Shown piece by piece: positions 9,146 to 10,596 of a DNA stretch of 64,000 bases. The notes under the pieces were generated by a model, which was given only the letters and a program-made list of their open reading frames with translations, was not told the origin of the DNA and ran no database searches. The first letter of the stretch is position 1; the number at the start of each line of letters is the position of its first letter. Where the stretch lies: the NCBI GenBank assembly GCA_049518535.1, contig JBEKRS010000019.1, forward strand, positions 12,033 through 76,032, read 5' to 3'. The position numbers were made by a program, and so were the translations under genes. This DNA is from Terracidiphilus sp. (lineage in GTDB: Bacteria > Acidobacteriota > Terriglobia > Terriglobales > Acidobacteriaceae).

Positions 9146-9208
9146 ATGGCAAAGAAAGTCGCACCGGCAAATTCCAGAGGCCTCGAAACCTCCATCATCA
9201 TTTCGTAG
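9146..9208 (+). pseudogene. Degenerate 20-codon relic of a canonical short-type argG N-terminus
   Basis: Translates MAKKVAPANSRGLETSIIIS*, matching the canonical ArgG start [16 protein letters not shown]; lies where argG is expected. Confidence 0.7.
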
Positions 9209-9255
9209 CCAATCGTCTCTAGCTGGAAGCTAGATTTTTAAGAGGTTTCGCAAGC

Positions 9256-10596
9256 ATGTCCGTAATTCTCGAATCCCTGCCCATTGGCCAGAAAGTTGGC
9301 ATTGCCTTCTCCGGCGGGCTGGACACCTCCGCCGCCCTGCACTGGATGAAGCAGAAGGGCGCCATCCCTTACGCCTATACAGCCAACCTCGGCCAGCCCG
9401 ACGAAACCGACTACGACGCCATCCCCCGCGCGGCCCTCGAATACGGTGCCGAAAAGGCCCGTCTCATCGACTGCCGCGGTTCTCTGGTTCGCGAAGGTAT
9501 CGCAGCGCTACAGGCCGGGGCCTTCCATATCACTACCGCCGGCGTCGCGTACTTCAACACGACTCCCATCGGCCGCGCAGTTACGGGCACCATGCTGGTG
9601 GCCGCAATGAAGGAAGACGATGTAAACATCTGGGGCGACGGATCAACTTTTAAGGGCAACGACATCGAGCGTTTCTACCGCTACGGCCTGCTCGTCAATC
9701 CCAGCCTCCAGGTCTACAAGCCCTGGCTTGACGCCGCTTTCATCGACGAATTAGGCGGCCGGGCCGAGATGTCTGCCTTCATGCAGTGTTCCGGCTTCGC
9801 CTATAAGATGTCAACGGAAAAAGCCTACTCCACCGACTCCAACCTGCTCGGCGCAACCCATGAAGCAAAAGACCTGGAGCATCTTTCTTCGTCGATCAAG
9901 ATCGTCGTCCCCATCATGGGCACGGCATTCTGGCGGGACGATGTCGAGATCCAGCGCGAACAAATCACCATTCGTTTTGAAGAGGGCTCGCCCGTCGCCC
10001 TCAATGGTCGGCAATTCGACTCGCCCGTCGCACTCCTTCTCGAAGCCAACCGCATCGGCGGCCGCCACGGCCTCGGCATGTCGGATCAGATTGAAAACCG
10101 CATTATTGAAGCCAAATCCCGCGGCATCTACGAGGCCCCCGGACTCGCACTGCTCTTCATCGCCTACGAGCGCCTCATCACCGGCATCCACAACGAGGAC
10201 ACCATCGAGCAGTACCGCGACAATGGACGCAAGCTCGGTCGTCTACTCTATCAGGGCCGTTGGTTCGACTCGCAGGCGATCATGCTCCGCGAATCTGCCC
10301 AGCGTTGGGTCGCCAAACCCATTACAGGCGAAGTCACCCTTGAGTTGCGCCGTGGCAACGACTACTCCATCCTCAACACCGAGTCGCCCAATCTCACTTT
10401 CCATCCTGAGCGCCTCAGTATGGAGAAGACTGAATCCATCTTCTCCCCGCGCGACCGCATCGGACAACTCACCATGCGTAATCTCGATATTACAGACACT
10501 CGCGATAAGCTCCTTACTTACGCTGCGGCTGGTCTCCTCACCCTCAGCAAAGGCAGCGAAATGCCCCGGCTCAACAGCGGCCCTGAAAAGGAATAA
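9256..10596 (+). CDS. argG: Argininosuccinate synthase, long (E. coli-like) type
   Basis: [44 protein letters not shown]; 446 aa. Confidence 0.95.

Follow-up and report, generated by a model that had tools for sequence, protein, structure and literature searches.

A remnant of a short-type argG gene preserved in front of the long-type argG in the arginine operon of a Terracidiphilus genome

The window analysed here is a 64,000-nt stretch of Terracidiphilus sp. DNA (assembly GCA_049518535.1, contig JBEKRS010000019.1, positions 12,033 to 76,032 of the forward strand), in which the genes for arginine biosynthesis lie in the order argB-argD-argF-argG-argH (Table 1). ArgG proteins fall into two classes, a short class of approximately 400 aa that is found in most bacteria (PRK00509/NF001770) and a long class of approximately 445 aa, the E. 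coli type (PRK05370/NF003779). The argG gene of the window belongs fully to the long class, as the initial annotation had recognized: it scores 865.6 bits against NF003779/PRK05370 over residues 1-442 (cut-off 657), whereas its score against the short-type model NF001770/PRK00509 is 214 bits, below the cut-off of 334, and it contains both domains, PF00764 and PF20979. The 6.17-Mb assembly has no other argG-class match and no second functional copy. A weak match to PF00764 (20 bits) at C3:181195-181401 (L002) lies inside a 517-aa ORF and presumably represents another PP-loop ATPase rather than an argG.

Table 1. Features of the arginine operon around the argF-argG spacer in the window.
Feature	Position (nt)	Strand	Basis or remark
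argB	6000-6782	+	named from translation only
argD	6789-8039	+	named from translation only
argF (ornithine carbamoyltransferase), upstream operon neighbour	8032-9075	+	PF02729 and PF00185; NF001986, 401 bits
argF-argG spacer, 180 nt	between 9075 and 9256	+	
Inverted repeat, 15-bp arms 9057-9071 / 9112-9126, overlapping the argF stop	9057-9126	+	RNA fold
Shine-Dalgarno relic left from the short-type gene, AAGAGA (intact alleles: AGGAGA)	9136-9141	+	alignment with G149, G120 (..AGGAGAAATCATG) and other stub alleles
Probable fossil 5′ stub, short-type argG codons 1-22	9146-9212	+	profile scan, BLASTN, alignment
Stub ORF, ATG 9146-9148, TAG 9206-9208 at the former Trp21	9146-9208	+	translation MAKKVAPANSRGLETSIIIS
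5′ end of the long-type cassette, the native upstream region of argG-long	9213-9255	+	junction common to stub alleles
Small hairpin 9218-9234, T5 run 9235-9239, Shine-Dalgarno GAGG 9242-9245	within 9213-9255	+	terminator-like site from pattern scan
argG, long type, 446 aa	9256-10596	+	NF003779, 865.6 bits
argH (argininosuccinate lyase)	10629-12077	+	PF00206 and PF14698

The spacer between argF and argG contains a small ORF that the initial annotation had taken for the decaying start of a canonical ArgG, and this identification is borne out at both the protein and the DNA level. A 22-residue HMM, built solely from the N-termini of short-type ArgG proteins of the sister family in the same order, was run with filters off against the genome translated in six frames, 199,730 stop-to-stop ORFs in total. 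The highest score, 20.4 bits, was that of the true ArgG, and the small ORF, with a significant score of 17.5 bits (genome-wide E 0.026), came second, ahead of the next ORF at 11.4 bits; thus, the top non-argG match in 6.2 Mb sits 110 nt upstream of argG. When window positions 9117-9262 were searched with BLASTN against 200 genomes/species of Terracidiphilus, the matches were the 5′ ends of genuine short-type argG genes, at 78-89% identity, the best being that in G149 (89% over 72 nt, E 9e-21). The stub of the window is identical to the intact short-type genes of the genus, which themselves score 595-605 bits against NF001770, at 54-56 of 66 nt (82-85%); the likeness also covers the upstream AGGAGAAATC, and at the other end the homology to the old gene passes the stop codon by two codons, to 9212. 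The ATP-binding motif A-Y-S-G-G-L-D-T-S of ArgG is not intact in this stub, which reads A-N-S-R-G-L-E-T-S (P-loop SGGLDTS to SRGLETS). The differences from the canonical start can each be reached by a single base change, as had been proposed (CTG to CCG, GGA to AGA, GAC to GAA and TAT to AAT), the last of these requiring two changes if the ancestral codon was TAC. Compared with a complete short-type protein of approximately 400 aa with both domains, only 22 codons are left, with a stop at codon 21; the stub would accordingly be placed in the short-type family as a gene fragment, by homology, and not as a member in the functional sense.

Relatives carry the intact counterpart of this fragment in the same slot. 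In three Terracidiphilus species (G188, G066 and G120), which contain no long-type argG, an intact short-type argG of 404-407 aa lies between argF and argH; argF adjoins it, and its stop is located two bases before the argH start (..AAGTGAAGATGTGG). Many or most of the genomes compared are MAGs, some of which carry frameshift errors, and frameshifted copies of the short-type gene are found in G149 and G098; for the three intact genes, the flanking argF and argH argue against contamination during binning. The initial annotation had reasoned that a genus in which all relatives were of the long type, with no short-type ancestor, would speak against displacement, and the three species show that this is not the case. 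Since these sister species keep the old gene intact in the very same slot, the in-operon displacement is visible directly in the DNA. With respect to other alleles, the 54%-complete MAG G149 contains two types (L149 and L150, contigs C17 and C162): on one contig, argF is followed by a short-type argG and an argH, with several frameshifts in the latter two genes, the other carries an intact argG-long and argH, and rpoB is intact. The bin may be mixed, or a single genome may have been caught with both alleles. Two full-length long-type argG copies are present, on different contigs, in each of G047 and G072.

Stub and long-type argG occur together in G000, G184, G110, G087, G020, G189 and G121, and a stub shortened to its 3′ part remains in G164, G009, G050, G094, G012 and G043, so that 13 of the 201 sampled genomes of the genus are stub-bearing. 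One and the same junction is found in all 13: homology to the short-type gene stops after ..CCC TGG CTC A, that is, after codon 22 plus one base (...IIIPWL; window position 9212), and is followed by TTGCCTCTAGCCAGAAGCTAGA..GAGGTTTCGCAAGC and then the ATG of argG-long. The last 30-45 nt or so before argG-long (GAAGCTAG..GAGGTTTCGCAAGC ATG) are also present in long-type alleles that have no stub. A metagenome scan used a pattern with one anchor inside the stub and the other at the start of argG-long, which made it blind to the 5′ end of the stub; it retrieved 23 contigs comprising 18 distinct alleles, all with the identical junction. The stub consensus agrees with the short-type alleles of the genus at 52-60 of 66 nt (best G149, 60), versus 46-54 of 66 for seven other genera, and this greater closeness to the genus's own alleles indicates that the event happened within the Terracidiphilus lineage.

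The stubs have decayed in different ways. Relative to the consensus of the intact genes, they show 31 non-synonymous to 29 synonymous changes, whereas the same 22 codons of the intact genes show 6 to 18 (Fisher p 0.03). The SGGLDTS motif, which intact alleles keep, is broken differently in different stub alleles (SRGLETS in the window, SEVLDTS and SEALGTA elsewhere). Trp21 has become TAG, TGA or TAA in many of them, all by G>A steps, and G121 has a stop at codon 9, while other alleles stay open for 31-40 codons; partial deletions and lost starts also occur. By this pattern, the stub is under relaxed constraint and evolves like a pseudogene. Mean pairwise identity among stubs is approximately 0.75, as against approximately 0.68 at four-fold degenerate sites of the adjacent argG, and this divergence, near the four-fold rate, fits neutral drift since a single event and explains why the stub is still recognizable. 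The stub of G087, with a near-intact peptide and one non-synonymous change, is odd for an old single event.

Taken together, the intact genes in the same slot, the closeness at the DNA level, the single junction and the pseudogene-like decay support the proposal that a short-type argG was displaced within the operon. Very probably, therefore, positions 9146-9212 are what is left of the 5′ end of a short-type (PRK00509-like) argG, with its Shine-Dalgarno sequence, start codon and 22 codons but no function, and the gene was replaced in situ by the long type. The fossil origin stands, and the original claim has to be refined in two respects: the long type is no newcomer limited to this genome but the majority allele of the genus, and the side idea of a translated leader is not supported.

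Two readings would deny the stub this status. An ORF of just 20 codons, for which hmmscan with default filters (Pfam, NCBIfam) reports no match, might be spurious and resemble the P-loop region of ArgG by chance; with its second rank in the genome-wide profile scan, its 78-89% DNA identity to real genes of the same locus (Shine-Dalgarno included) and the same junction in dozens of independent assemblies, this is hardly conceivable. The other reading, raised as an alternative by the initial annotation, holds that the stub has been kept or exapted as a translated leader ORF; on this view, base pairs between the stub interior and the Shine-Dalgarno sequence of argG-long would come apart when the leader is translated, and argG translation would be coupled to that of the leader. 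Positions 9184-9192 (CGAAACCUC, stub codons L-E-T-S) are perfectly complementary over 9 bp to 9242-9250 (GAGGUUUCG, the Shine-Dalgarno region of argG-long), the predicted fold pairs them, and the ninth pair is made by the D>E change GAC>GAA. In G189 (L258), a 23-bp stem joins the stub to the ribosome site and start of argG-long, at -34 kcal/mol compared with a shuffle mean of -12, and the duplexes between stub and argG of the same allele are more stable than those between alleles (permutation p 0.0016). However, the duplex of the ancestral intact sequence is already at -16 to -18 kcal/mol; since the ancestral sequence pairs nearly as well, most of the complementarity was built in, and the pairing leaves a leader role at a low probability.

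Conservation of the leader itself gives this reading little help. Among the stubs found by BLAST in genomes, the Shine-Dalgarno sequence, the start and the first 14 nt looked over-conserved (nt 1-14, p 7e-5), which had made a conserved translation start a candidate; it was rejected as an ascertainment bias, the signal being gone in the 5′-blind metagenome sample. There, the start codon is lost in 8 of the 18 distinct alleles, and nt 1-14 are conserved no better than nt 15-43 (changed fractions 0.25 and 0.21, p 0.27). Across relatives, an ORF with a kept start and position is not found: starts are lost, stop positions vary, the peptide is not conserved, and most relatives have no such ORF, approximately 90% of the genus genomes lacking the stub altogether. 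Features of an arginine attenuator are likewise missing from the stub region, which has one Arg codon and a lone weak hairpin with a T5 run (9218-9239) that is not conserved, and an Rfam search of 8900-9400 gave no match. A translated leader is therefore very unlikely, and a decaying, non-functional stub remains the preferred reading.

The spacer in which the stub lies is also variable in other respects. Throughout the genus, argF-argG spacers nearly always hold a long inverted repeat (9057-9126 in the window; also L004, L007, L008, L010, L012, L013 and L014), the arms of which consist of short tandem units such as GCTAGAAGCTAGCGGCTAGAAGC, AGTGATTAGTGATTAGTGG and CAGCTAACAGCAAACAG; the unit sequence varies by species, while the hairpin architecture stays. 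This hairpin could be a transcript-stabilizing, REP-like or terminator element. Small unrelated ORFs are inserted between argF and the stub in L142/L005 (G020, 583-nt spacer), L145/L015 (G012, 1210-nt spacer), L257 (G121) and L259 (G043), one of those in G121 looking from its translation like a small membrane protein, and the spacer is an insertion hotspot. In the metagenome contigs L264 and L273, the 5′ end of the stub is replaced by a hairpin element, CCCCAGGTCTCAGAAGCGAGACCTGGGGCAC, whose right-hand end (GGGGCACCC) is also present in L274; it looks like a mobile hairpin of the REP/MITE kind.

With regard to which type is the older occupant, the order argF-argG-argH is found in all short-type genera examined, and the short type fills the slot in most other genera of the family. 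The long type, which is approximately 30% identical to the short type, was found in 23 of the 251 Acidobacteriota genomes compared, spread over 12 of 163 genera; it is absent from the sister family, and the other families of the phylum that carry it are f51, f28, f43 and f77. Within the Acidobacteriaceae, it is confined to genera g1, g12, g16-18, g29 and g36, which include a few short-type species, and it is the majority allele in Terracidiphilus and several neighbouring genera. The tree of short-type proteins roughly follows the genera (g12 with g18; g1 apart). In several relatives, argG-long is located at a separate locus and argF abuts argH, with the last bases of a short-type gene remaining between them: L249 (G013), L250 (G019), L254 (G239), L255 (G220) and L253 (G222). 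This 3′ tail reads ..GAAGTGAAG ATGTGG in G013 and G019, is the same in G239, G220 and G222, and is also given as ..AAGTGAAG ATGTGG; in G239, the argF frame runs into the old argG tail (..NVRKEATK, then a stop), an in-frame deletion fusion. These tails indicate that the genus ancestrally held a short gene in this slot, and together with the operon order and the patchy occurrence of the long type they identify the short gene, the type ancestral in Acidobacteriota, as the original occupant and the long gene as a xenologue. On more than one occasion, the slot has lost its gene or received another. A search for an external donor of the long type among homologous proteins returned same-genus proteins only.

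The argH side of the slot carries a second trace of its history. In the window, argH begins with a 9-codon N-terminal extension, MSNEQQSVK (10629-10655), ahead of the ancestral start MWSGRF at 10656. Every long allele located in the operon, in this genus and in others (g29, g18 and g36), has an extension of the form M-S/A-N-E-Q-Q-S-x-K before MWSGRF, which is absent from short-type alleles; at this 3′ junction, the latter end in ..GCCGTGAAGTGAAG ATGTGG. The extension, being preserved in g29, g18 and g36, shows that the in-operon long allele arose once. The 8 nt CCGTAAAG at 10648-10655 may, tentatively, be a few-base relic of the 3′ end of the old argG. G015 (L251) has the argH start of the long allele (MSNDQQSAK-MWSG) with no argG between argF and argH, its argG-long being located elsewhere, which suggests that an in-operon long copy was lost or relocated. 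At the other junction, the sequence that follows the stub is similar to the 3′ arm of the hairpin found ahead of argG-long in alleles lacking a stub. In view of this likeness and of the common argH-side junction, the stub allele is most readily taken for a recombinant, one parent being a Terracidiphilus short-type allele and the other a pre-existing in-operon long-type allele.

The ancestral operon of the family was argF-argG(short)-argH. In the lineage of this genome, the short gene was very probably removed almost entirely, from codon 23 to about its last codons, and the slot taken by a cassette consisting of a long-type (PRK05370-like) argG and approximately 45 nt of its own upstream region. 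The stub allele would have arisen once within Terracidiphilus, from a short-type allele and a pre-existing in-operon long-type allele, through one illegitimate crossover, located inside codon 22/23 of the old gene and in the hairpin region upstream of the long gene, and a second, homologous crossover in a flanking gene. Such a product could come from homology-facilitated illegitimate recombination or from a deletion in a short-lived tandem arrangement. The allele may then have passed among related species, partly via homologous recombination through argF and argH. As the sole argG, the long gene presumably does the work, and the stub would be left to drift neutrally.

The phylogenies bear on both the direction and the number of such exchanges. 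The trees of argF, argH and rpoB agree with each other, so that the flanks follow the species tree, and argG type does not. The types interleave among close sisters, with G188 short and G094 carrying a stub remnant, G087 a stub and G014 none, and G000 a stub and G018 none, which implies that the cassette was exchanged between species or sorted from polymorphism. In the rpoB tree, whose backbone support is weak, the basal lines of the genus are of the long type, and short-type and stub alleles are found in the crown group. Sister pairs with different alleles, compared by sliding-window identity along argF and argH, showed no clear recombination breakpoints, and monophyly of the stub-linked argG-long genes was not seen in an argG-long tree displayed without support values.

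The long-type basal lines invite a reading of the same fossil in the opposite direction, in which a lineage that already had argG-long in its operon took up the stub along with the 3′ part of argF during an imprecise recombination, the source being a relative of the short type, and no functional displacement took place in this lineage. The post-junction sequence looks like the tail of a hairpin region, so that long alleles with a complete hairpin spacer would predate the stub allele, and other genera, too, have the long allele in the operon together with the argH extension; both observations fit such an import. Against it, short and stub alleles interleave among sisters (G188 and G094; G149 with G009 and G050), which means that short-type chromosomes existed in this clade, and relatives with argG-long elsewhere keep the short-type 3′ tail in the operon. 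The flanks give no signal either way. On balance, an import of the stub is rather unlikely, and displacement of a resident short-type gene is preferred. It is also conceivable, though we would stop somewhat short of even odds, that both argG types and the stub hybrid persist as interchangeable cassette alleles of one slot in Terracidiphilus and neighbouring Acidobacteriaceae genera, swapped repeatedly between species via recombination in argF and argH. If so, a core biosynthetic enzyme would show trans-species polymorphism at this locus, with enzymatic or regulatory differences possibly maintaining both forms, and there would not have been a single clean replacement.

Displacement of operon genes is usually inferred from discordant trees, and the recombination event itself is almost never visible. 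In-situ xenologous gene displacement in conserved operons was reportedly described by Omelchenko, Makarova, Wolf, Rogozin and Koonin in 2003 in Genome Biol 4:R55, and to our knowledge earlier cases were inferred from trees alone. The argG slot matches the process in that a gene of argF-argG-argH was replaced in place by a distant homologue while the neighbours keep the vertical signal: distant homologues occupy the same slot, the long type is patchy and discordant, and no functional old copy is left. Both the term and the definition are used here as they appear in PMC1274311. By contrast with cases known from trees, the breakpoint is marked here, to the base, by what physically remains of the displaced gene, and all of the states are found in a single genus: the intact old gene, the stub with the new gene, the stub partly deleted, the new gene only, and the new gene elsewhere with the old one deleted. 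These stages, surviving in one soil genus and its neighbours, provide a natural series for asking how operons turn mosaic, how fast remnants decay and whether variants of a core enzyme are exchanged between species. They also carry a lesson for annotation, namely that small ORFs beside a gene can be stubs of its predecessor.

Homology-facilitated illegitimate recombination was first described in naturally competent bacteria. As defined in PMC3240628, the process resembles what the stub allele suggests, with an illegitimate join in codon 22/23 and conserved flanks that could have anchored the other end; the difference is that here the mechanism is read from the end product only. A further parallel is offered by the effector genes of the Vibrio cholerae T6SS, where, according to PMC5361080, incoming cassettes sequentially displace residents at a fixed locus and pieces of earlier occupants stay behind as orphan remnants and thus as a record. 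The genes described there are, however, accessory competition genes under diversifying selection and their orphan immunity genes are functional (PMC5361080), whereas in Terracidiphilus a core enzyme was swapped and the remnant is non-functional. With regard to the two ArgG classes, the working gene belongs to the long one and the stub derives from the short one. The enzymes themselves are nothing new; the novelty is that, within one genus, the two alternate at a single slot of the operon. Consequently, the argG stub is a clean and unusually explicit new example of a known process, in-situ xenologous displacement, and not a new kind of system.
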